From Promethearchaeum syntrophicum (lineage in GTDB: Archaea > Asgardarchaeota > Lokiarchaeia > Sigyniarchaeales > Promethearchaeaceae): a stretch of DNA of 32,000 bases. The stretch lies in NCBI RefSeq assembly GCF_008000775.2, contig NZ_CP042905.2, forward strand, positions 2,040,001 through 2,072,000, written 5' to 3'. The position numbers and the translations under genes are program-made. Under the pieces are notes generated by a model that had not been told where the DNA came from, ran no database searches, and was given only the letters and a program-made list of their open reading frames with translations. Shown piece by piece: positions 10,504-30,519 of this stretch; positions within the stretch are counted from its first letter, which is position 1; each line of letters begins with the position of its first letter.

Positions 10504-11640
10504 ATGTATAAGGCTATCCCTCAATATCGAAAATTGCAGCAACACTTGGATAAGCTCCCTATTGGATATCCAGAAACGGAATCTGGAGTTGAAATTCGGA
10601 TTTTACAGCATTTATTTACTACAGAAGAAGCCGAAATTGCAATTGACTTAGATCTAATGCCCACTACCGCTGAAAAACTTCATAAACGGATAAAGAACTC
10701 CAATTATTCAGTTGATGATCTAGAAGAAAAACTTGATAAAATGGCTGATAAAGGAGCTATTAACCGACATGTAAAAAAAAATGGTTTGAGACTTTTTAGT
10801 AGTGCTTTATTGGCTATTGGAATGTTTGAATTCCAAGTTGACAGGATGACCAAAGAATTTTATTCCGACTTTTTACAGTACCTGGACGAAGCTTTTCGTG
10901 ATGAAATTTTAAGTACACGAATCCCTCAACTACGAACTATCCCAACTGAAGGTTCTATTGCTCCTGATTTGCCCATTATGACATATGATAACATTAGAGA
11001 TATTATTTCTTCATATAAGGGGCCTATTGCGGTAGCGAATTGTGTTTGTAAGCAAGGAAATGATCTCCTTGGAGAACCCTGTCATCAAACGAAAATGAGA
11101 GAAATTTGTTTTACATTCGGGAGTTCTGCGCGCAAATTTATAAGCGAAGGATTAGGTAGAAGTATCGATAAAGAAGAAACGTTTAAAATCCTTAAACAAG
11201 CTGAAAAAGACGCTTTAGTTCTACAACCTTCAAATACTGAAGTTCCATTCTGTCTGTGTCTATGTTGTGGATGCTGTTGTGAGATTTTAACAAGTGCTAA
11301 ACCACTAGAAAATCCCGTTCAGTATTTTGCGACAAATTATCGGGCAATAATTGATACAGAAACATGTATTGGTTGTGGTGTATGTGAAACGCGATGTCAA
11401 ATGGATGCCATTTCAATTGTAGATGATAAAAGCGTCATTGATTATGAACGATGCATTGGATGTGGACTGTGTATTACTTCATGCCCTGAAGAAGCGATGA
11501 AATTAGAACATGTAGAACATACAAAAAAGCCACCAAAAAATGGTGTAGAGTTATATATGAATATATTGAGAAAGAAAGTAGGAAATGCAAAATACATCAT
11601 TATGTTAACAAAACAGTGGTTTGGGTCAAAATTTAACTAA
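10504..11640 (+). CDS. Cys-rich Fe-S protein, paralogue 1, with a C-terminal 2x[4Fe-4S] ferredoxin domain
   Basis: Ferredoxin motifs are CIGCGVCETRC and CIGCGLCITSCP. Additional Cys motifs are CVCKQG...C and FCLCLCCGCCCE. By eye it is roughly three-quarters identical to the ORF at 14855-15994. Confidence 0.7.
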   Translation: MYKAIPQYRKLQQHLDKLPIGYPETESGVEIRILQHLFTTEEAEIAIDLDLMPTTAEKLHKRIKNSNYSVDDLEEKLDKMADKGAINRHVKKNGLRLFSSALLAIGMFEFQVDRMTKEFYSDFLQYLDEAFRDEILSTRIPQLRTIPTEGSIAPDLPIMTYDNIRDIISSYKGPIAVANCVCKQGNDLLGEPCHQTKMREICFTFGSSARKFISEGLGRSIDKEETFKILKQAEKDALVLQPSNTEVPFCLCLCCGCCCEILTSAKPLENPVQYFATNYRAIIDTETCIGCGVCETRCQMDAISIVDDKSVIDYERCIGCGLCITSCPEEAMKLEHVEHTKKPPKNGVELYMNILRKKVGNAKYIIMLTKQWFGSKFN

Positions 11641-11689
11641 TTTTTTAAAAATTTGATAAATTATTCATAATAAATTGAATTTGATCAAT

Positions 11690-12487
11690 ATGTATACGGT
11701 TGGAATTGACATTGGAAGCCTAGCAACAAAAATAGTGCTTTTAAGTGAGGGGAAAATTATAGCGATGATACAAAATCGCTCTTTACATAACTTTAGTGCA
11801 ATTGGAACCCAATTATTCAACCAAATTTTAGAAGAAAATAACCTTACTAATGGTGATATTGGAAATATTTACTCTACAGGATATGGAAGACATTCTATTC
11901 CCAATTTAACATCAAATATCGTAACAGAAATTTCTGCACACGCCCGAGGGGCACAATATTTTCATCCCAAAGTCCAAAGTATTATCGATATTGGCGGTCA
12001 AGATAGTAAGGTTATCAAAATAAATCCTAAATCGTTAAAAGTGATCGATTTCCAAATGAACGATAAATGTGCTGCAGGAACAGGTCGATTTTTAGAAGTG
12101 ATGGCAAATGCTTTAGACATCCCCATTGAGGATCTTGGAAATTTAGCTCTGGAAAGTAATTCTCCCGTACAGATCTCTTCAACTTGTACTGTGTTTGCTG
12201 AATCAGAAGTTATTGGACAATTTGCCCAAGGGGCGGCAAAACATGATATTGCAGCAGGAATTCATAATTCTATTGCAAAAAGAATTGCATCTATGGCAAA
12301 ACGGATTCAAGGTGTTGAGCCCATTGTATTTTGTGGAGGTGTCGCTTTAAATCCCGCGGTTAAAATTGCTTTAGAAAATGAATTAAAATTAAAATTAATT
12401 GTCCCCAAATATCCTCAATATACCGGAGCAATTGGAGCAGCTCTTATTGCTAAAGAAAAATTCAAAAATGGGAGTAAAATTCTTTGA
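11690..12487 (+). CDS. BcrAD/BadFG/HgdC-type ATPase, the activase of 2-hydroxyacyl-CoA dehydratase / benzoyl-CoA reductase-type enzymes
   Basis: The ASKHA fold motifs are GIDIGSLATK, DIGGQDSKVI, NDKCAAGTGRFLE and GGVALN. I prefer the ATG at 11690 (MYTVGIDIGS) over the track's TTG at 11675. Confidence 0.85.
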   Translation: MYTVGIDIGSLATKIVLLSEGKIIAMIQNRSLHNFSAIGTQLFNQILEENNLTNGDIGNIYSTGYGRHSIPNLTSNIVTEISAHARGAQYFHPKVQSIIDIGGQDSKVIKINPKSLKVIDFQMNDKCAAGTGRFLEVMANALDIPIEDLGNLALESNSPVQISSTCTVFAESEVIGQFAQGAAKHDIAAGIHNSIAKRIASMAKRIQGVEPIVFCGGVALNPAVKIALENELKLKLIVPKYPQYTGAIGAALIAKEKFKNGSKIL

Positions 12488-13527
12488 AAACATTTGCGTA
12501 TTTTGATAGTTCTCATGAATTTCCAGAAGAAATTATAATTGCCGCTCAAATGAATCCATATAAAATTTTAGGGAAAAATGATTTTTCTACGGAATTAGCA
12601 GATCAATACATTCCACAATTTATGTGTGCAAATGCTAGAAGTTTTTTGAATCAAGCGTTAGAAGAATCCTCTAAATGGGAAGGAATTGCAATTGCACACG
12701 GTTGTGACGCAACGAATCGCCAATTTGATATATGGGAACAGCACGTTCAAACACCTTTTCTTTATTATATCCACAATCCGTTAAGAACAGATAGAATTGC
12801 TCAACGATTTTTTATTCGAGAAATCAAAGCGATGATCAATGCATTAGAATCTAAATATCGCATTAAAATCACTTTAGATCAACTTGAAAAGGCAATCCAA
12901 GTATCGAATAATATTAAGATATTGTTGCAGAGTTTATCCCAATTACGAATAATAAAAGATATTTCTAATTCTGAGTATTTCAATGTAGTTAAATATTGTG
13001 TACAAAATCCAAAAGAAGAAATAATTTCATATCTCAACTCTATTTTGTCAGATTGGAAAACGAGAAATTCATTTCCGATTAATAAGATCCCCATATTTTT
13101 AACGGGATCTGATATAACTCATGCTTTATGGTATGAATTATTAGAAAAAGTAAACCTTAGAGTAGTTAGGGATGATCTTACAATAGGAGAGCGATATTTT
13201 GCAACTTTGATCCCGACTGATAAAGATCCAATATCAAATATCGCGAAATATTATTTGAATATTCCCCGTTCTTCTACAAAGCATCCTACAAATCCCCGTA
13301 TTAATTATATTCTGAAAGCATGCAAAAGCGAGAAAATTCATGGAGTTGTATCCCAAATTATAAAATATTGTGAGACTTTTGCATATGATGTTCCATTCTT
13401 AAAATCTCAATTAGAAGTTATTCACATACCAGTAATTCATGTCGAACGAGAATTTACGGAAAATATTGATCAGCAAATTTCAACTCGATTAGAAGCTTTT
13501 GTAGAACTTTTAGAACAAAACCGTTAA
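12484..13527 (+). CDS. 2-hydroxyacyl-CoA dehydratase / BcrC-BadD-HgdB family subunit (smaller)
   Basis: Its position is immediately after the activase, with a 4-nt TTGA start/stop overlap. The N-terminus AYFDSSHEFPEEIIIAAQMNPYKILG is typical of the family. Conserved Cys are present (HGCDATN, KYCETF). The family assignment is by eye. Confidence 0.65.
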   Translation: MKTFAYFDSSHEFPEEIIIAAQMNPYKILGKNDFSTELADQYIPQFMCANARSFLNQALEESSKWEGIAIAHGCDATNRQFDIWEQHVQTPFLYYIHNPLRTDRIAQRFFIREIKAMINALESKYRIKITLDQLEKAIQVSNNIKILLQSLSQLRIIKDISNSEYFNVVKYCVQNPKEEIISYLNSILSDWKTRNSFPINKIPIFLTGSDITHALWYELLEKVNLRVVRDDLTIGERYFATLIPTDKDPISNIAKYYLNIPRSSTKHPTNPRINYILKACKSEKIHGVVSQIIKYCETFAYDVPFLKSQLEVIHIPVIHVEREFTENIDQQISTRLEAFVELLEQNR

Positions 13528-13544
13528 AATAGGAAAAAACTAAC

Positions 13545-14843
13545 ATGACTGCTAATTCTTCAACTCATCCTCCTCGGAAATTAGTAAAAACTCTCAAGAG
13601 CTCTAAAGATATTGGTAATTTAATAAAATGGTATATGCTAAAAGCTAAAATTGCAGAATTATTACCGTGGAAAAAATCAGCATGGATTACTTCCTCAACA
13701 TCAGTAGAATTACTCTGGGGATTTGACATTTTTCCATTGCACCCGGAAAACAATGCTTGCATTGCCGGAGCAAGGAAAATTTCGCAAGATTTGATTGAAC
13801 ATGCTGAAAGTTTAGGATATTCTCGTGATATTTGCTCGTATATGAAAACTAATGTAGGGGCTTTTGATAAAAAGATAAGTATTCAAATGGGTGGTATCGC
13901 AAAACCTGATTTTGTGGTAACCTCAGGAACTATCTGTGATACTCATGTAAAATGGTTTCAAAATCAAGCGCGAAGAATGGATGTACCAATTTATGTTTTT
14001 GATGTGCCTCATATTGTCAATAATACTTCAAGATCCACAAAAAATCGATATAAGGGATATGTAATTGATCAAATTTATGATTTCTTTGATTTTGTTGAAG
14101 ATACTGTGGGGAAGAAATTAAATGAAAAAAAATTGATAAAAACATGGCAAAATTCTCATCGATTAACCGATCTTTGGCAAAAAATTTATAATTACCGCAA
14201 AAAAGTTCCATCTCCTATCGGATTTGCTGATACTTTAGGAGATATCTTTCCTTTAGTTATATTGCCAGGAATTAAAAAAGGGATCAAGTATTTTGAAAAT
14301 ATTCTTAAAGAAGTAGAAGAAGATGTTGCTTTAGGGAAAGGAATATTACCAAAAGAAGAAGAAAAATACCGATTAATGTTTGAGGGAATACCAATGTGGT
14401 ATAGGATTAAGTTTTTTCATCAACTGATGAATTATGGAGCCGTTGTGACTTATGAACCTTATACTTTTTCTTTTGGGCCTTATCGCCCTTATGTGGATAA
14501 TCTAGAAGATGGGTTAAATGTGATGGCAGAACATTTAATGTATCAACCTTATATCTATAATTTATCAGATCGAATTGCGTATTTTAAAGATGTTATCAAA
14601 CAATATCATATTGATGGTGTGTTATTGCATGAAAATATGAGCTGTCGACCATCGTGTACAGGGCTGTACGATCTTAAACAAAAAATTCAACAAGATTTAG
14701 GAATTCCCGTTTTATTGTTTACTTGTGATATGAATGATCCCCGTGCTTATGCAGCGGAACAAATGCAAACTCGTATCGAAGGTTTTATGGAAGTTTTAGC
14801 GCAAAACAAAAAATATTCAAAAATTCAAAAAGCTTTAGATTGA
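13545..14843 (+). CDS. 2-hydroxyacyl-CoA dehydratase / HgdA-BcrB family subunit (larger)
   Basis: 432 aa. Family-like segments are FDIFPLHPENNACIAGA, DICSYMK and GTICDTHVKW. It lies in the same operon. Confidence 0.65.
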   Translation: MTANSSTHPPRKLVKTLKSSKDIGNLIKWYMLKAKIAELLPWKKSAWITSSTSVELLWGFDIFPLHPENNACIAGARKISQDLIEHAESLGYSRDICSYMKTNVGAFDKKISIQMGGIAKPDFVVTSGTICDTHVKWFQNQARRMDVPIYVFDVPHIVNNTSRSTKNRYKGYVIDQIYDFFDFVEDTVGKKLNEKKLIKTWQNSHRLTDLWQKIYNYRKKVPSPIGFADTLGDIFPLVILPGIKKGIKYFENILKEVEEDVALGKGILPKEEEKYRLMFEGIPMWYRIKFFHQLMNYGAVVTYEPYTFSFGPYRPYVDNLEDGLNVMAEHLMYQPYIYNLSDRIAYFKDVIKQYHIDGVLLHENMSCRPSCTGLYDLKQKIQQDLGIPVLLFTCDMNDPRAYAAEQMQTRIEGFMEVLAQNKKYSKIQKALD

Positions 14844-14854
14844 TTAATATTATA

Positions 14855-15994
14855 ATGCAAACTACAACTTCCCAATATCGAAAATTACAGCAACATCTTG
14901 ATAGACTCCCAATAGGATTCCCAGAAACGGAATCAGGAGTCGAAATACGAATTTTACAACATTTATTTACTCCAGAAGAAGCAGAAATTGCCGTTTTCCT
15001 TAATCTACTCCCTGAAAAAATACAAAAAATCAATAAACGATTAAAAAAGAAAAAAAAAAATCTGACAGAATCTGAACTTGAAAAAGTCTTAGATAACCTT
15101 AATGAAAAGGGAGCCATAAGTCGACATATAACACAAGACGGGACTAAATATTTTAGTATTGCCATGTTAGCTATTGGAATGTTTGAATTTCAAGTTAACC
15201 GTATGACCAAAGAATTTTATACAGATTTCGCGCAATATTTAGAAGAAGCATTCCGAGATGAATTTTTAAGCACCCGAATCCCCCAATTAAGGACTATTCC
15301 AACCGAAGGAAGCATTACCCCAGAATTACCTATTATGACATATGATAACATTCGCCATATAGTTACAAATTATAATGGTCCAATTGCTGTAACAAATTGT
15401 GTTTGTAAACAAGGTCAGGATATGCTTAATAATCCATGTAAACAAACGAAAATGAGAGAAATTTGTTTTATTTTTGGCAGTGCCGCTCGCAAATATGCAG
15501 AATCCGATTGGGGCAAAGTATTAACCAAGGATGAAGCATTTGAAATTCTCAAACAAGCCGAAAAGGATGGATTAGTTTTACAACCTTCAAATACTGAAAA
15601 AATTTTTTGCTTATGTCTATGCTGTGGGTGCTGTTGTGAAATTTTAACAAGCGCTAAACCACTAGAAAATCCCGTTCAGTATTTTGCAACCAATTATCGG
15701 GCAATAGTAAATATAGAAACATGTATAGGCTGCGGTATTTGTGAAAATCGATGTCAAATGGATGCAATTTCAATTGAGGATGGAAAAAGTGTTATTGATT
15801 ATAGTCATTGTATTGGTTGTGGGCTATGTGTAACTTCATGCCCTCAAGAAGCCATGAAATTGGAACATGTGGGGCATCAAAGAAAACCACCAAAAAACAC
15901 CGGATTACTTTATATGAGTATCCTCAGGAAAAAAATTGGAAATGCGAAATTTATTATTATGCTCACAAAACAATTGTTTGGAAAAACTTTTTAA
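14855..15994 (+). CDS. Cys-rich Fe-S protein, paralogue 2
   Basis: Collinear with 10504-11640 and with the same motifs (CVCKQG, FCLCLCCGCCCE, CIGCGICENRC, CIGCGLCVTSCP). An identical DNA run, aaaccactagaaaatcccgttcagtattttgc, occurs in both copies. I prefer the ATG at 14855 because it aligns with the paralogue's start; the track's TTG is at 14840. Confidence 0.7.
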   Translation: MQTTTSQYRKLQQHLDRLPIGFPETESGVEIRILQHLFTPEEAEIAVFLNLLPEKIQKINKRLKKKKKNLTESELEKVLDNLNEKGAISRHITQDGTKYFSIAMLAIGMFEFQVNRMTKEFYTDFAQYLEEAFRDEFLSTRIPQLRTIPTEGSITPELPIMTYDNIRHIVTNYNGPIAVTNCVCKQGQDMLNNPCKQTKMREICFIFGSAARKYAESDWGKVLTKDEAFEILKQAEKDGLVLQPSNTEKIFCLCLCCGCCCEILTSAKPLENPVQYFATNYRAIVNIETCIGCGICENRCQMDAISIEDGKSVIDYSHCIGCGLCVTSCPQEAMKLEHVGHQRKPPKNTGLLYMSILRKKIGNAKFIIMLTKQLFGKTF

Positions 15995-16778: not shown

Positions 16779-16930
16779 AGATTTGGGTAACTTTTTGCAT
16801 AAGTAATCATGAAATTCCCATGTTTACGAAATTCCGTCATTTTTCCCAAATATTCAATTCTTGGCTAACCCAATAAGCCTTAATTTTTTAAACATACCTA
16901 TTTTTTCCATCTCTACGCTCGAATTCAGAA
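16779..16930 (-). pseudogene. Truncated relic covering the last ~17 codons plus 3' UTR of the HesB/IscA-like gene; it is copy A of a ~150-bp repeat
   Basis: Aligns with 18686-18836 with a few substitutions and indels. The stop TAA has become TTA. The copy ends abruptly at ...gaattcagaa, where the 34-bp repeat begins. Confidence 0.65.
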
Positions 16931-16962
16931 CAATTGTTTGGAAAAACTTTTTAATATTTTTT
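16929..16962 (+). repeat. Copy 2 of the 34-bp direct repeat, an ectopic duplicate of the 3' end of Fe-S paralogue 2
   Basis: aacaattgtttggaaaaactttttaaTatttttt, compare 15969-16002. Confidence 0.85.
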
Positions 16963-17195: not shown

Positions 17196-18569
17196 ATGAT
17201 AAATACTATCCAAAAAAAATTCCATCCAATCGCAAGAAATTTAACCATTTTAATTATTATTATCCAAATTTTATCGATAAGTCAAATAATATTTTGGTTT
17301 CAATTAAAGCAAGAATTAACTGAATTACCAATTCTTATTTTTACTATACCCTTTCTTCTACATCTGATTTTTCTTTTCATTTCAATCTCCTCTTTAAAAA
17401 AGAATCCTTTGGATTTTCCAAAATTTTCATTAATAATATTTTTGATTGCTTTAAGTATTTCATTAATATTTAGTAGATATGGCTTTTTTGAAACGGATCC
17501 TGACATTCGGCTACATAATCTCCTAATTATAATCTTTATTTTTTATATCATTTGCATTATTGTCTATTTAATTATTTTATTCGTAAATCTGATAGAAAAG
17601 AACCAATTAATTGAGACTTTTCTTGAAGATCAAGTAGAAATGAACATAAATTCACACAAATCGATAGATTTCAATAATGCAGAAAAAATTTTAGCTATTA
17701 ACATTATAAAAATAATTAATCGAATTTTCGAGCAAAAAAGAATTAAAATATGGTGGATAAATAAAGTATATTCTGATTCTCTTTATGATTTTAATTCCAA
17801 TCACTCAAAAATATTTATAATAATCCCTAATGTGGTCAAATACTTTGCGGAAAAAGCCAAAATTGATGAAAAAATTAAATTTGATGATGTTTCTTCAGAA
17901 TTAAATCTAAGTTCTTACGCACTCAAGAAGCTTCTCCAATATTTACGTGATAAATCAATATGTAATTTAAATTTAAGCCAAGATAATATGTACATTGATT
18001 TCGGTCGTTTTGTAAAAGATCAAATTGTAGATTTATCAATTCAAAATCTGGCTTCTTCTTCACCAATTCCTAATGATAATAATATTAGTAATCCAATATA
18101 TAAACAGAAAGAAGTTCAACAAAAAAGCAAAATTACTGCAGGTCTTTTTGGTATATTCCTTGGTGATTTTGGAATCCATCATTTCTATCTAGGAAACATC
18201 AGCAAAGGAATTCTTATGCTTGTTTTTTGCTGGACAGGAATCCCCGGTATTATAGGTTTAATTGAAGGAATTATGATTTTAGGCTCGTCAGATCAAGAAT
18301 TTGAAAATAAATATATTATTCTTTCTTCAAGTGCGAACTATTCTCAGAAAATTACGAATTATCATAATAATCGATCTCAATCCTCATCAAATTCAAATCT
18401 AATAAATACAGCTACTATACCATCCTCAGAGAATTTGAACCAAGATAAAAATTCAAGAGTTTCTCCTACTCTTTCAATTAAAAACTCTTTTTGTCCAAAA
18501 TGTGGAAGGAAATTAGATGGATGGTTTGAATTCTGCCCACAGTGCGGATTAAAACTACCGAATAATTAA
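17196..18569 (+). CDS. Multi-pass membrane protein with a TM2 domain and a C-terminal zinc ribbon
   Basis: The TM2-domain signature is GLFGIFLGDFGIHHFYLGNISKGILMLVFCWTGIPGIIGLIEG. The C-terminus is CPKCGRKLDGWFEFCPQCG. The N-terminal third is strongly hydrophobic. Confidence 0.6.
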   Translation: MINTIQKKFHPIARNLTILIIIIQILSISQIIFWFQLKQELTELPILIFTIPFLLHLIFLFISISSLKKNPLDFPKFSLIIFLIALSISLIFSRYGFFETDPDIRLHNLLIIIFIFYIICIIVYLIILFVNLIEKNQLIETFLEDQVEMNINSHKSIDFNNAEKILAINIIKIINRIFEQKRIKIWWINKVYSDSLYDFNSNHSKIFIIIPNVVKYFAEKAKIDEKIKFDDVSSELNLSSYALKKLLQYLRDKSICNLNLSQDNMYIDFGRFVKDQIVDLSIQNLASSSPIPNDNNISNPIYKQKEVQQKSKITAGLFGIFLGDFGIHHFYLGNISKGILMLVFCWTGIPGIIGLIEGIMILGSSDQEFENKYIILSSSANYSQKITNYHNNRSQSSSNSNLINTATIPSSENLNQDKNSRVSPTLSIKNSFCPKCGRKLDGWFEFCPQCGLKLPNN

Positions 18570-18685: not shown

Positions 18686-18836
18686 AGATTTGGGTTACTT
18701 TTTGCAAAGTAATCGGGAATTCCCCATGTTTACGAAACTCCGTCATTTTTCCAAATATTCAATTCTTGGCTTACCCAATAAGCCTTAATTTTTTAAACAT
18801 ACCTATTTTTTCCATCTCTACGCTCGAATTCAGAAC
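18686..18836 (-). repeat. Copy B of the ~150-bp repeat, covering the intact gene's 3' end and 3' UTR
   Basis: See 16779-16930. Confidence 0.8.
18712..18746 (-). promoter_or_regulatory. Candidate SECIS-like hairpin in the 3' UTR
   Basis: The minus-strand RNA is AUGAC-GGAGUUUC-GUAAACAUGG-GGAAUUCC-CGAU. It forms an 8-bp helix that includes two G-U pairs. UGAC and CGAU can form tandem sheared G.A pairs. The apical loop is A-rich. The element starts about 25 nt after the stop codon. Confidence 0.4.
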
Positions 18837-19082
18837 TAAATCATCCATTTCCTTATCTATGTATACCGGACAAGGAGTATCTTTTATCTCTATTTTTCTG
18901 AATTCACATTTCCCGTGAACTAAATCTTTTCCCGTAAAAGGATTTTCTTCAATTTTTAACTGAACATCGTACACAATTCCTCATCATCCATGAGTTTTTG
19001 AATAAAATATTAAAAAAACCGGAGATTTTAATTCACTAGCGCGACGAGAGATGAATCCCAATGCATCTGCGGCTATTTTCAT
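18771..19082 (-). CDS. HesB/IscA-like protein with tandem in-frame UGA-UGA, a candidate selenoprotein (alternatively a pseudogene)
   Basis: The ATG at 19082-19080 is preceded by AGGTGA (19094-19089) with a 6-nt spacer. There follow 32 codons (MKIAADALGFISRRASELKSPVFLIFYSKTHG), then TGA TGA at 18986-18981. The same frame continues GI plus the 67-aa track ORF. The total is 104 codons including the stop. Confidence 0.5.
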
Positions 19083-19564
19083 TGTAATTCACCTATAATT
19101 TCCTTTAGTATAAGTAATTTTAATTTTTATCCTTTTTAATCCGTTCTTTGTTTTTTCTAAGTTTTCTAAATTGACTTTTTTCATTCCTTTTTTTGGTCCA
19201 ATTTTGTAGAATAAATATGGGTGCTAGCATTTGTATAGACACTTATCAAGGTTTAGCATAAAGCTTTTAGATTCTCCATACTTTATTTTAGGTAATATAA
19301 CGTTTTCATTAACGCCAGTAAATGAGTCATTTCGGCTTCTATTATTCAAATCGTTGGAATAACACCCCAAAATTCCCATTTTTGAATAAGAATGAATATA
19401 AAAATAACCGAAATGATTAACAATTAATAGAATATTTACGAGTAATTAATGAAAAATTCTTAAGAATATAAGAAAAAATATAATATAATACTAATAAAAG
19501 TTATAAAAATTGTATATAAAAAAATTACAGATATGCAAATATAATAACAAATACGTGAAAAATC

Positions 19565-26461: not shown

Positions 26462-27433
26462 TCAACCGTTCAGTTGTTTAGTCTTCTCTTCATCATCCAC
26501 TAAAATTCCTCTTAGAATTTCGTAAATCTCGTTGTATGATTGCTCAAAGAAATTGAATTGGTCAATTACAACGGCTTCATCGTGTTCCTCGAGTATTAGC
26601 AAAACGAAGAATAACAATCCTTCGATATCAAAAGATTGGATTACTCCCGATACTTTTGTTGCCCAATCAAGTCTATCAGAAAATTCGTAAGAATTCATAT
26701 TACCATCCAAAATTCGTCTCTGAACTATTTCGTAAAGGGTTAAAATCTTCTTCTTCATGGTTAATGTGAGGTTTTCAAGGAAGTAACTACCAATCTCGAT
26801 TCCATTTTGCTCAAACACTAATAAAGCCATCACATTTTCCATTTTATCGACAATATCGAGTAAAAATTTCTGAACAGCTTCATTTTGGGTATATAACATT
26901 GAAATTCCACGACTAAAAGCTTGAATAATGGTATGGATCTCGAATATATTAGATTTGTAAAAACCCATTTTGAATTTTTCTAACCATGGGCGAATACGGT
27001 GCTTTACTATTCCCATATTCTTTAAAATGGTTGGATCTTCACCAATCTTTGGATCACATTTATGGAGACAAACCACAATTGGAGCATCTATCTTATTTTC
27101 TTCAAAGAATTCCAGAACCTCGTCAAGATATGCAATAGCACTATCAAATCGAAGACTATCTTGAATATCAATAACATATATCAATAAATCAATCCCGCTA
27201 AGATAGCGCATTTTATTTTTTAAATATTCATCCATATAGTGCTTTTGTCCACCAAAATCATGTAAATAAATCAAATGGTCCATAAAAGTCACGCTTGAGC
27301 GTTCTATCTTCTTCGTTGGTTTGAGTCCTTTAACCGCTTCCGGGACATCGAATTTTTTTCTCATTGCAGTAAGAATAGATGTTTTTCCAGCATTGTCAAG
27401 CCCTAGTAGAGCAATTTTTTTATCTGAAACCAT
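26462..27433 (-). CDS. Rag/Gtr-like GTPase with a C-terminal roadblock-like domain
   Basis: G1 is GLDNAGKTS and G3 is HDFGGQ. G4 is LHKCD, that is HKxD as in RagA/Gtr1 rather than NKxD. About 140 aa follow with an alpha/beta pattern. The length of 323 aa is similar to eukaryotic Rag proteins. Confidence 0.75.
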   Translation of the reverse strand: MVSDKKIALLGLDNAGKTSILTAMRKKFDVPEAVKGLKPTKKIERSSVTFMDHLIYLHDFGGQKHYMDEYLKNKMRYLSGIDLLIYVIDIQDSLRFDSAIAYLDEVLEFFEENKIDAPIVVCLHKCDPKIGEDPTILKNMGIVKHRIRPWLEKFKMGFYKSNIFEIHTIIQAFSRGISMLYTQNEAVQKFLLDIVDKMENVMALLVFEQNGIEIGSYFLENLTLTMKKKILTLYEIVQRRILDGNMNSYEFSDRLDWATKVSGVIQSFDIEGLLFFVLLILEEHDEAVVIDQFNFFEQSYNEIYEILRGILVDDEEKTKQLNG

Positions 27434-29985: not shown

Positions 29986-30519
29986 TTATTTTCCTTGCTC
30001 CGTTAGTATTTTTATTTTTTTTTGAGTATATCTCATTAAAGTCGAAATTAATTCAATCATCAACGCCTGGTTCTTTGGATCGATTGCAACCATAGGATAT
30101 GTTTTTATTTTTAATAGGTCTTCAACACGATCAGGGGTCATATGCCCTTTAAGATCTTGTTTGTTAGCTAGACACACAATTTCACATAGATCATCATCGA
30201 TTAGATTTCTTGCGTGATCGATAATTTCCATCGTCGAAAGAACATTTTTTGGAGTCGAATCAGTAACAATAAAGATCAAATCCGAACCATGGATATATTT
30301 ACTGAGTTGTTGTTTGATGAATGCTTTTTGACCTCCAAAGTCCCAGATCTTGAAAGGATTTATGTTTGGGTCGTTTAAAGTTGCCAAATTAAAACCCATT
30401 GTAGGATTATATCTTCCTGTGATTAATTGCCCACGGATCATTTTAGAGATAGTAGTTTTACCTGTAGCTGGTGCTCCGACAAGACTGATTTTTGCAAATT
30501 TTGCAAATTTTTGATCCAT
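29986..30519 (-). CDS. Arf-like small GTPase
   Basis: G1 is GAPATGKTT. G3 is WDFGGQ, the Arf-type WDxGGQ. G4 is ANKQDL, the Arf-type NKQD. Length is 177 aa. Confidence 0.8.
   Translation of the reverse strand: MDQKFAKFAKISLVGAPATGKTTISKMIRGQLITGRYNPTMGFNLATLNDPNINPFKIWDFGGQKAFIKQQLSKYIHGSDLIFIVTDSTPKNVLSTMEIIDHARNLIDDDLCEIVCLANKQDLKGHMTPDRVEDLLKIKTYPMVAIDPKNQALMIELISTLMRYTQKKIKILTEQGK

Follow-up and report, generated by a model that had tools for sequence, protein, structure and literature searches.

Selenoproteins described in published surveys of Asgard archaea comprise SelD, FrhA/VhuU, HdrA, FrhD/VhuD, PrxL, an AhpF-N homologue and a DsbA-like protein. The Lokiarchaeal form of the selenocysteine insertion sequence (SECIS), termed lokiSECIS, consists of an AUGA, a 9-bp stem, an 11-nt apical loop that starts A-rich and has G as its last nucleotide, and a GA (Mariotti 2016, PMC4989117). 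Loops of the form G[U/G]AAA are variants found in Asgard eSECIS-like type I elements (Huang 2024, PMC11227280). In this report, we describe a small gene in a 32,000-nt stretch of the Promethearchaeum syntrophicum genome (contig NZ_CP042905.2, positions 2,040,001 to 2,072,000), hereafter the window, whose positions are counted from its first nucleotide. With a probability that we put at roughly 86%, window positions 18771-19082 on the minus strand hold a monocistronic gene for a selenoprotein of ~103 amino acids, in which both codons of a tandem UGA-UGA are decoded as selenocysteine (Sec or U).

Several described systems resemble this gene in part. The HesB-like selenoproteins of bacteria and Methanococcus maripaludis (TIGR01911) are, like the predicted window protein, small, related in fold to HesB/IscA and equipped with Sec in place of a ligand Cys. 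However, they carry a single Sec in a UxGP motif, as opposed to the U-U-G-[ILM] of the window family. They also have Cys homologues, of which none was detected for the window family, and their SECIS elements are of the euryarchaeal or bacterial type. The NCBIfam family NF041239 ("CC/Se motif family (seleno)protein", with a hypothetical selenoprotein of Moorella thermoacetica) comprises proteins of ~91 residues and is defined by a vicinal Cys-Cys motif onto which a weak colinear alignment places our Sec pair, but that family is bacterial and its catalogued Sec is single, within a CxxU motif. The A-type iron-sulfur (Fe-S) carriers (PF01521; PDB entries 1r94, 1s98, 1x0g, 2d2a, 1nwb and 2apn) share with the window protein a length of ~100 residues, a predicted fold and topology, and a reactive residue that takes the place of ligand Cys35 in a G-x-x-G turn linking strands beta2 and beta3. 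In contrast to them, the window protein has no similarity at the level of profile hidden Markov models (HMMs), no C-terminal Cys-x-Cys and no NPN motif; instead, it has Sec-Sec at the ligand site and a conserved Cys of its own, C71, in the motif PC[PDES]VY. Gly-Cys-Sec-Gly is the vicinal redox motif of mammalian thioredoxin reductase, and G-U-U-G is its all-selenium analogue, although the window motif is internal, at the tip of a hairpin, and not on a flexible C-terminal tail. Lastly, multi-Sec proteins of Lokiarchaea (PrxL with UxxU, VhuD and HdrA) also contain several Sec residues per protein, but the pair described here is directly adjacent rather than spaced as UxxU or distant.

Gene structure and annotation

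The gene starts at an ATG (19082-19080) that is preceded, with a 6-nt spacer, by the Shine-Dalgarno-like sequence AGGTGA (feature coordinates are given in Table 1). Thirty-two sense codons, counted from this ATG and encoding the peptide MKIAADALGFISRRASELKSPVFLIFYSKTHG, lead up to TGA TGA, which is the sole interruption of a 103-codon frame. Past the pair, the same frame continues for 69 further codons to a TAA (18773-18771), and the product would be 103 residues long if both TGA codons were decoded. A preliminary description made from the sequence had proposed this layout from the AGGTGA to the joined product, and every element of it was confirmed. It had also observed that open reading frame (ORF) prediction shows only a 67-residue GTG-start ORF here, and a plain ORF list indeed contains nothing else at this locus (18771-18974).

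Public databases hold the protein in pieces or under the wrong genetic code. The 32-residue N-terminal piece is identical to an "uncharacterized protein" of P. syntrophicum (UniRef A0A5B9DBS2), so the window comes from the cultured strain or one nearly identical to it. C-terminal fragments of 40-74 residues from relatives have been deposited as hypothetical proteins (P0004, P0008, P0011-P0014). In addition, database proteins P0001-P0010 were called with a code in which TGA specifies Trp, and the UGA pair is rendered in them as "WW".

Conservation among relatives

A word-indexed search of 5.8 billion proteins returned two full-length relatives of 103 residues that read "WW" at the Sec columns. 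Their DNA was retrieved, and in both it reads TGA TGA at these columns, the gene caller having applied a TGA=Trp table to short contigs. One scan of genome contigs added two loci from metagenome-assembled genomes (MAGs) of Promethearchaeum sp., and an exhaustive HMMER search (1.84 billion representatives), a profile search and a metagenome scan added members at only 29-47% identity. In total, 15 loci were collected, 14 of them distinct; the relatives come from Promethearchaeum MAGs and sediment metagenomes and have protein identities of 29-90%. In every locus the homologous codons read GGN TGA TGA GGN, and the frame is otherwise free of stops up to the normal C-terminus of the family. No member has TGG, TGY, GGN or any other sense codon at the columns of the TGA pair, and these searches turned up no truncated variant. 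The exhaustive HMMER search gave six matches, all of which were UGA-UGA forms or fragments.

Substitution patterns were then compared on the two sides of the pair. Between the window gene and its closer relatives, the ratio of nonsynonymous to synonymous divergence (dN/dS, Nei-Gojobori) was 0.07-0.11 for codons 2-32 and 0.05-0.15 for codons 35-103, at synonymous divergences (dS) of 0.7-1.1. Variable columns fell mainly on third codon positions, with counts at first, second and third positions of 4, 2 and 15 before the TGA pair and 9, 11 and 37 after it. Since both the low dN/dS and the third-position bias are found on both sides, we conclude that both halves are translated in this frame. The GTG at which the 67-residue ORF begins is not kept as a start in relatives; L001 and L002 have ATA GTT at this place, and other members have ATC GAA, CTA GAG and similar codons. 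No Cys other than Cys71 is conserved throughout the full-length members. It often occurs as CPC, and one 40-residue C-terminal fragment (P0014) has Val at this column. Other motifs conserved in the family are PV.LI[FY], E.PF and GM[FY]..L.

The preliminary description had read the tandem stops as Sec recoding and not as random decay. That reading is upheld by a TGA pair which is invariant down to ~30% identity, with TGA TGA and never Cys at both columns of all orthologues, by purifying selection on both sides of the pair (dN/dS ~0.05-0.15), and by the SECIS element and the Sec-using host described below.

A SECIS-type element in the 3' untranslated region

The 3' flank of the gene is much more conserved than its synonymous sites. 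Just past the stop codon, ~240 nt downstream of the UGA pair, it contains a hairpin of the kink-turn type with the parts expected of a SECIS: a lower stem, an unpaired AUGA, an upper stem, an apical loop and a GA, followed by a second small hairpin (Table 1). Of 12 loci, 11 satisfied a strict descriptor of this arrangement (AUGA-N-8bp-loop-8bp-N-GA), always 225-251 nt downstream of the first UGA, and three further loci have the hairpin as well. In 64 kb of window sequence the descriptor matched once, where fewer than 0.004 matches would be expected with eight of eight pairs and 0.06 with at least seven of eight. With a covariance model built from the family (R1), family loci reached 56-65 bits, among them L002 and L015-L017 from outside the training set.

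Base pairing in the upper stem is maintained although its sequences are quite different between subfamilies. In an ungapped alignment of nine sequences, 98.6% of the stem cells were paired and five of the eight pairs showed double compensatory changes. Compensated stem cells numbered 18, compared with 5.4±2.0 in shuffled alignments, and none of 500 shuffles was as good; when the partner strand was slid as a control, the pairing signal collapsed. AUGA and GA are invariant in this alignment. The stem consists of eight canonical pairs, and one additional N.N position, unpaired or wobble (U.G in three of the nine sequences), separates the core from this 8-bp helix. The loop has 10 nt, or 18 nt in L007, and takes the forms GUAAAC..GG, AUAAAC..G and ACAAAC..G, in which AAAC and the terminal G are invariant. 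A T-run follows the hairpin and is separate from it; the ribosome-binding site (RBS), the 3' untranslated region (3'UTR) structure and the terminator are all conserved among relatives. Independent minimum-free-energy folds of most family members gave the same three-way layout. Folding of the single 3' flank gave a z-score of only -1.1, and the structure is convincing only via the comparative data.

Judged by its sequence and alignment, the hairpin fits most features of the Lokiarchaeal SECIS class. It lies in the 3'UTR directly past the coding sequence (CDS), with AUGA before a stem of about nine positions (one N.N and eight Watson-Crick or wobble pairs). Its loop opens with R-Y-A-A-A, matching the G[U/G]AAA variants, and closes in G ahead of the GA, and one element is used for more than one UGA. 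It differs from lokiSECIS in its loop of 10 nt rather than the reported 11 nt, in its location within a conserved three-way junction with the second small hairpin (loop ..GC[CA]..), and in serving two UGAs that are directly adjacent. The same layout of lower stem, 9-bp hairpin and second hairpin is present in the 3'UTRs of bona fide PrxL genes (L012 2806-2890, L013 2809-2890 and L014 2821-2905). Their apical loops are GUAAACCUAUGG in P. syntrophicum, which is nearly the same as the window loop, and GUAAACCCUUGG and AAAAAAUGCUGG in the others. These PrxL hairpins have no adjacent AUGA...GA, and in this they do not fit the published core rule for lokiSECIS.

The second hairpin 3' of the GA is kept in all subfamilies despite unrelated stems (L005 ~470-490, L010 ~612-630, and L009, L011 and L016). 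Its loop recurrently holds the motif [UA]GC[CA] (UGCAA, UGCAG, AGCAA, AGCCC, UGCCC), which is also found in the second hairpins of PrxL 3'UTRs. This hairpin may be an auxiliary SECIS determinant. In the most divergent full-length locus (L008), a candidate hairpin of the form AGGA-(7 bp)-20-nt loop-(7 bp)-GA was noted at 708-830.

Some members of the family also use UGA as their true stop codon, namely L007 (504-542), L010 (565-720), L011 (590-593) and L016/L017 (~1507-1512). These UGA stops are within ~30 nt of the SECIS core or overlap it: in L011 the stop is the UGA of the AUGA itself, and in L016 it is UGA UGA. Gene callers that assume TGA=Trp read past such stops, leaving artefactual C-terminal tails in P0006 and P0010.

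Selenocysteine use by the host

TGA closes 9 of the 27 long frames in the window and is therefore an ordinary stop codon in this organism. The Sec-decoding trait of P. syntrophicum is documented. Sec-containing SelD, FrhA, FrhD, HdrA and three PrxL proteins have been reported from assembly GCA_008000775 (Huang 2024, PMC11227280). A P. syntrophicum UniRef protein, whose gene shows an in-frame TGA, matches one of the PrxL sequences of that study at 100% identity. Sec machinery genes and tRNA-Sec were not found within the window, where ARAGORN detected no tRNA at all.

Predicted fold and family assignment

The joined product was also compared with known protein families and structures. TIGR01911 (at E<=10) and the NCBIfam models for IscA, SufA and ErpA gave no match, and a sequence search of the PDB returned only a chance match to S24e. 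An hhalign comparison with an IscA/SufA/ErpA alignment was not significant (probability 7.6% with Cys in the Sec columns and 0.7% with Trp). Its register was colinear over the full length with either residue and set G-U-U-G on the G-C35-S-G of IscA. With Sec written as Cys, five of six members matched NF041239 weakly over the full length (E 2e-4 to 1e-2; 15.8-21.2 bits against a cutoff of 40). These matches disappeared once both Sec columns were masked, and they therefore show little beyond the fact that the UU falls on the Cys pair of that family. By sequence, the protein is thus not placed in PF01521, TIGR01911 or NF041239.

Structure prediction gave a different picture. Template-free AlphaFold 2 (AF2) modelling from 14 family sequences produced a best model with a predicted local distance difference test score (pLDDT) of 84.3 and a predicted template modelling score (pTM) of 0.74, whereas two sequences alone gave a pLDDT of 46. 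In the best model, residues 33 and 34 are located at the tip of a long beta hairpin, between the two paired strands beta2 and beta3. A Foldseek search of the PDB with this model returned A-type carriers for all of its top eight matches: IscA (1r94, 1s98 and 1x0g), SufA (2d2a) and the HesB-family proteins AQ_1857 and HI1723. The best match had an E value of 6.6e-4, a probability of 1.00 and template modelling (TM) scores of 0.59/0.62, and TM scores ranged from 0.55 to 0.62 over ~100 columns. Based on this model, we predict that the protein adopts the beta-sandwich of A-type Fe-S carriers (IscA/HesB) with its UU at the position of IscA Cys35, an assignment supported at the fold level only. Of the three Cys ligands conserved in these carriers (Cys35 and Cys99-x-Cys101 in E. 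coli IscA), the window protein has just the first position, as Sec33 with Sec34 adjacent, and its chain ends before the CxC tail.

The preliminary description had called the product IscA/HesB-like and had set THG-U-U-GIVYDVQL on the G-C-S-G motif of IscA. That register is the one hhalign gives, though not significantly. The family identity stands at the level of fold through AF2 and Foldseek, but the searches with PF01521, TIGR01911 and PDB sequences that could have supported it were empty; HMMs lend it nothing, and we judged the fold evidence to override this.

Alternative explanations

The simplest alternative is a pseudogene, that is, a decayed small ORF in which two stops became adjacent by chance. 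Annotation pipelines do split the locus into the 32-residue P0015 and the 67-residue GTG ORF, and a truncated duplicate of its 3' end lies nearby. However, all 15 loci, down to ~30% identity, share the same TGA TGA and show no other lesion. Selection is strong on both sides of it, and the RBS, 3'UTR structure and terminator are conserved. The comparative data essentially refute decay, and we give it next to no weight. Insertion of a standard amino acid at the UGAs (Trp, Gly, Cys or Arg), through reassignment or near-cognate read-through, is very improbable. Read-through of tandem stops does exist in some systems, and P0001-P0010 were called with TGA as Trp. Yet TGA ends a third of the long window frames (9 of 27) and, in L007, L010, L011 and L016, genuinely terminates the orthologous gene itself, no member shows TGG, TGY or GGN at the two columns, and the host has the Sec trait along with a SECIS-type hairpin whose AUGA/GA and distance are fixed. 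The locus might also yield two products, a 32-residue peptide and a re-initiated frame of 67-69 codons, with the 3' hairpin merely a terminator or stability element. This view draws on the GTG three codons past the TGA pair in the window, which opens the 67-residue ORF. We regard it as extremely improbable, since that GTG is neither conserved as a start nor preceded by an RBS, and the continuity of the frame is preserved in all cases. In addition, one compact predicted domain needs both halves, with the UU at a hairpin tip between paired strands, and the 3' hairpin has a conserved unpaired AUGA/GA and conserved loop motifs of the sort found in SECIS elements that bind protein, the T-run following separately. 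Bypass of the UGAs by frameshifting was considered and rejected; the frames before and after are identical, so two compensating shifts would be required.

A further possibility is that the gene encodes a genuine UU selenoprotein whose IscA/HesB fold has been wrongly assigned, and that it belongs to an unrelated family or to NF041239, with no tie to Fe-S carriers. We consider this unlikely but far from negligible. Pfam, TIGR01911 and PDB sequence searches were empty, the hhalign probability did not exceed 7.6%, only two of five AF2 models exceeded a pLDDT of 50, and the full-length NF041239 match, weak as it is (E 2e-4 to 1e-2), points elsewhere. Against it, the top eight Foldseek matches in the PDB are exclusively A-type carriers, at TM scores of ~0.6 over the whole chain, and the hhalign register agrees however the Sec columns are written. 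The NF041239 match is also lost on masking of Sec, and NF041239 may itself share the fold.

Several results nevertheless weigh against a di-Sec protein of the IscA type. Exhaustive HMMER and profile searches and scans of genome and metagenome contigs found no Cys homologue, so the Sec/Cys pairing usually sought for selenoproteins is lacking here. A Cys homologue aligned to the Sec is usual for selenoprotein families but not obligatory. Efficient decoding of two adjacent UGAs is not known from archaea. When the joined product was compared with Pfam, its Sec columns written as CC or XX, nothing matched even at E<=10, PF01521 included. The AF2 prediction relies on a shallow alignment of 14 sequences with Sec entered as Trp, and its two models above a pLDDT of 50 (84.3 and 69.7) were two of five. 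In L008 (P0007), which at 31% identity is the most divergent full-length member and has TGA TGA, neither the descriptor nor the covariance model found an AUGA/GA hairpin. Applied to the three bona fide PrxL genes, the family covariance model gave a best match of 13 bits, at an irrelevant site; as those elements lack an adjacent AUGA/GA, this cross-check is either negative or says little. Lastly, Rfam found no SECIS or tRNA-Sec family, either at gathering thresholds over the whole window or at E<=10 around the gene. This silence is expected, because existing SECIS tools have also been reported to fail on Lokiarchaeal elements (Mariotti 2016, PMC4989117).

Proposed mechanism and significance

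Based on the Sec-decoding interpretation, we propose that SelB/EFsec of the archaeal, eukaryote-like kind, together with Sec-tRNASec, would be recruited by the single 3'UTR SECIS, and that both UGAs would be decoded as Sec in succession. UGAs within ~30 nt of the SECIS would instead terminate translation, as they appear to do in four family members. The product would be a small IscA-fold protein whose reactive center is a vicinal diselenol/diselenide, probably acting with Cys71. The chemistry of a vicinal Sec-Sec pair is unusual, with an eight-membered diselenide ring, a very low potential and a strong affinity for soft metals. Speculatively, G-U-U-G and Cys71 could together make up a low-potential redox center or a site that binds soft metals or Fe-S(e), and it might span a dimer. 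We tentatively favor such a role in redox chemistry or in soft-metal or Fe-S(e) handling, because of the ligand position shared with A-type carriers and the analogy to the G-C-U-G of thioredoxin reductase.

The gene very probably represents a real selenoprotein family that is new but belongs to a known general kind; its vicinal di-Sec motif is unusual, and Cys homologues of it could not be detected. The motifs of the family are absent from the supplementary sequence sets of Huang 2024 (PMC11227280). No UU or UxU motif occurs among the 119 prokaryotic selenoprotein families of a 2026 catalogue, nor does a vicinal UU among the eight Asgard ones, and a literature search for natural adjacent Sec-Sec or for the family itself found nothing relevant. 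It is likely that the family is, more specifically, a new and apparently Sec-obligate one of Promethearchaeum/Lokiarchaeal origin, which uses adjacent UGAs and one eukaryote-like SECIS to place a vicinal diselenol/diselenide on a minimal IscA-like scaffold. Published Asgard selenoproteomes were compiled from homologues of known families and from Sec/Cys pairs, and a family without Cys homologues was therefore missed. The Asgard catalogue is thus incomplete, and the window family would add one entry to it. With two adjacent UGAs and a single SECIS of a type regarded as the forerunner of the eukaryotic element, the gene offers a natural test case for back-to-back Sec insertion, and Sec at consecutive codons bears on the recycling of SelB/EFsec on the ribosome. 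For an obligate syntroph, a vicinal Sec-Sec could also mean a redox or metal/cluster-handling function of a new type. Because the cultured strain MK-D1 carries the gene, these claims can be tested.

Gene features and neighborhood

Table 1. Coordinates of the selenoprotein gene, its SECIS element and a partial duplicate within the window.
Feature	Position	Strand	Evidence
Shine-Dalgarno-like AGGTGA, 6 nt before the start	19089..19094	-	sequence; GGTGA/AGTGA at the same place in L001-L004
Predicted CDS, 103-residue selenoprotein, Sec at residues 33 and 34	18771..19082	-	translation, full-length orthologues, dN/dS
Tandem TGA TGA, predicted Sec33-Sec34, with a Gly codon on either side (G-U-U-G)	18981..18986	-	invariant, 15/15 loci
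Cys71 codon, motif PC[PDES]VY, candidate third ligand or resolving residue	18870..18872	-	alignments
Candidate SECIS, whole element, 3'UTR	18689..18755	-	RNAalifold, descriptor, covariation, covariance model
SECIS lower stem, UUUGG/CCAAA	18755-18751 with 18693-18689	-	RNAalifold
SECIS AUGA core, unpaired	18746-18743	-	RNAalifold
SECIS upper stem, 8 bp	18741-18734 with 18723-18716	-	RNAalifold
SECIS apical loop, 10 nt, GUAAACAUGG	18733-18724	-	RNAalifold
SECIS GA	18714-18713	-	RNAalifold
Second small hairpin 3' of the SECIS GA	18712-18695	-	RNAalifold
Partial duplicate (direct) of the last ~22 codons and SECIS, ~150 nt	16780..16935	-	covariance model R1, 50.8 bits; ~94% identity

The partial duplicate has TTA in place of the TAA stop, and most of its changes fall in the 3' arm of the SECIS stem, which is degraded; it is probably a non-functional remnant. 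Its T-run terminator is closer to those of the orthologues than is that of the functional copy. The two copies flank a convergent gene for a TM2-domain/zinc-ribbon protein (17196-18569, plus strand) that L003 and L004 lack at this place, and an insertion or duplication may have left this arrangement behind. A divergent gene for 272 residues is common to the window and L004, and its window version encodes a coiled-coil/zinc-ribbon protein. Different genes neighbor the family members in L009 and L011, and gene neighborhood is uninformative on function.

Elsewhere in the window, a plus-strand cluster at 10504-15994 encodes a 4Fe-4S ferredoxin-domain protein, a BcrAD/BadFG-type activator ATPase, two D components of 2-hydroxyacyl-CoA dehydratase (HGD-D) and a further Fer4 protein. 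The cluster resembles an amino-acid fermentation module built on this dehydratase, with no apparent connection to the selenoprotein gene. The minus strand holds three eukaryote-like genes for small GTPases (507-1046, 26462-27433 and 29986-30519), with Pfam matches to Ras/Roc/Arf and Gtr1/RagA; in keeping with the taxonomic placement, they are typical of the "eukaryotic signature" content of Asgard genomes.

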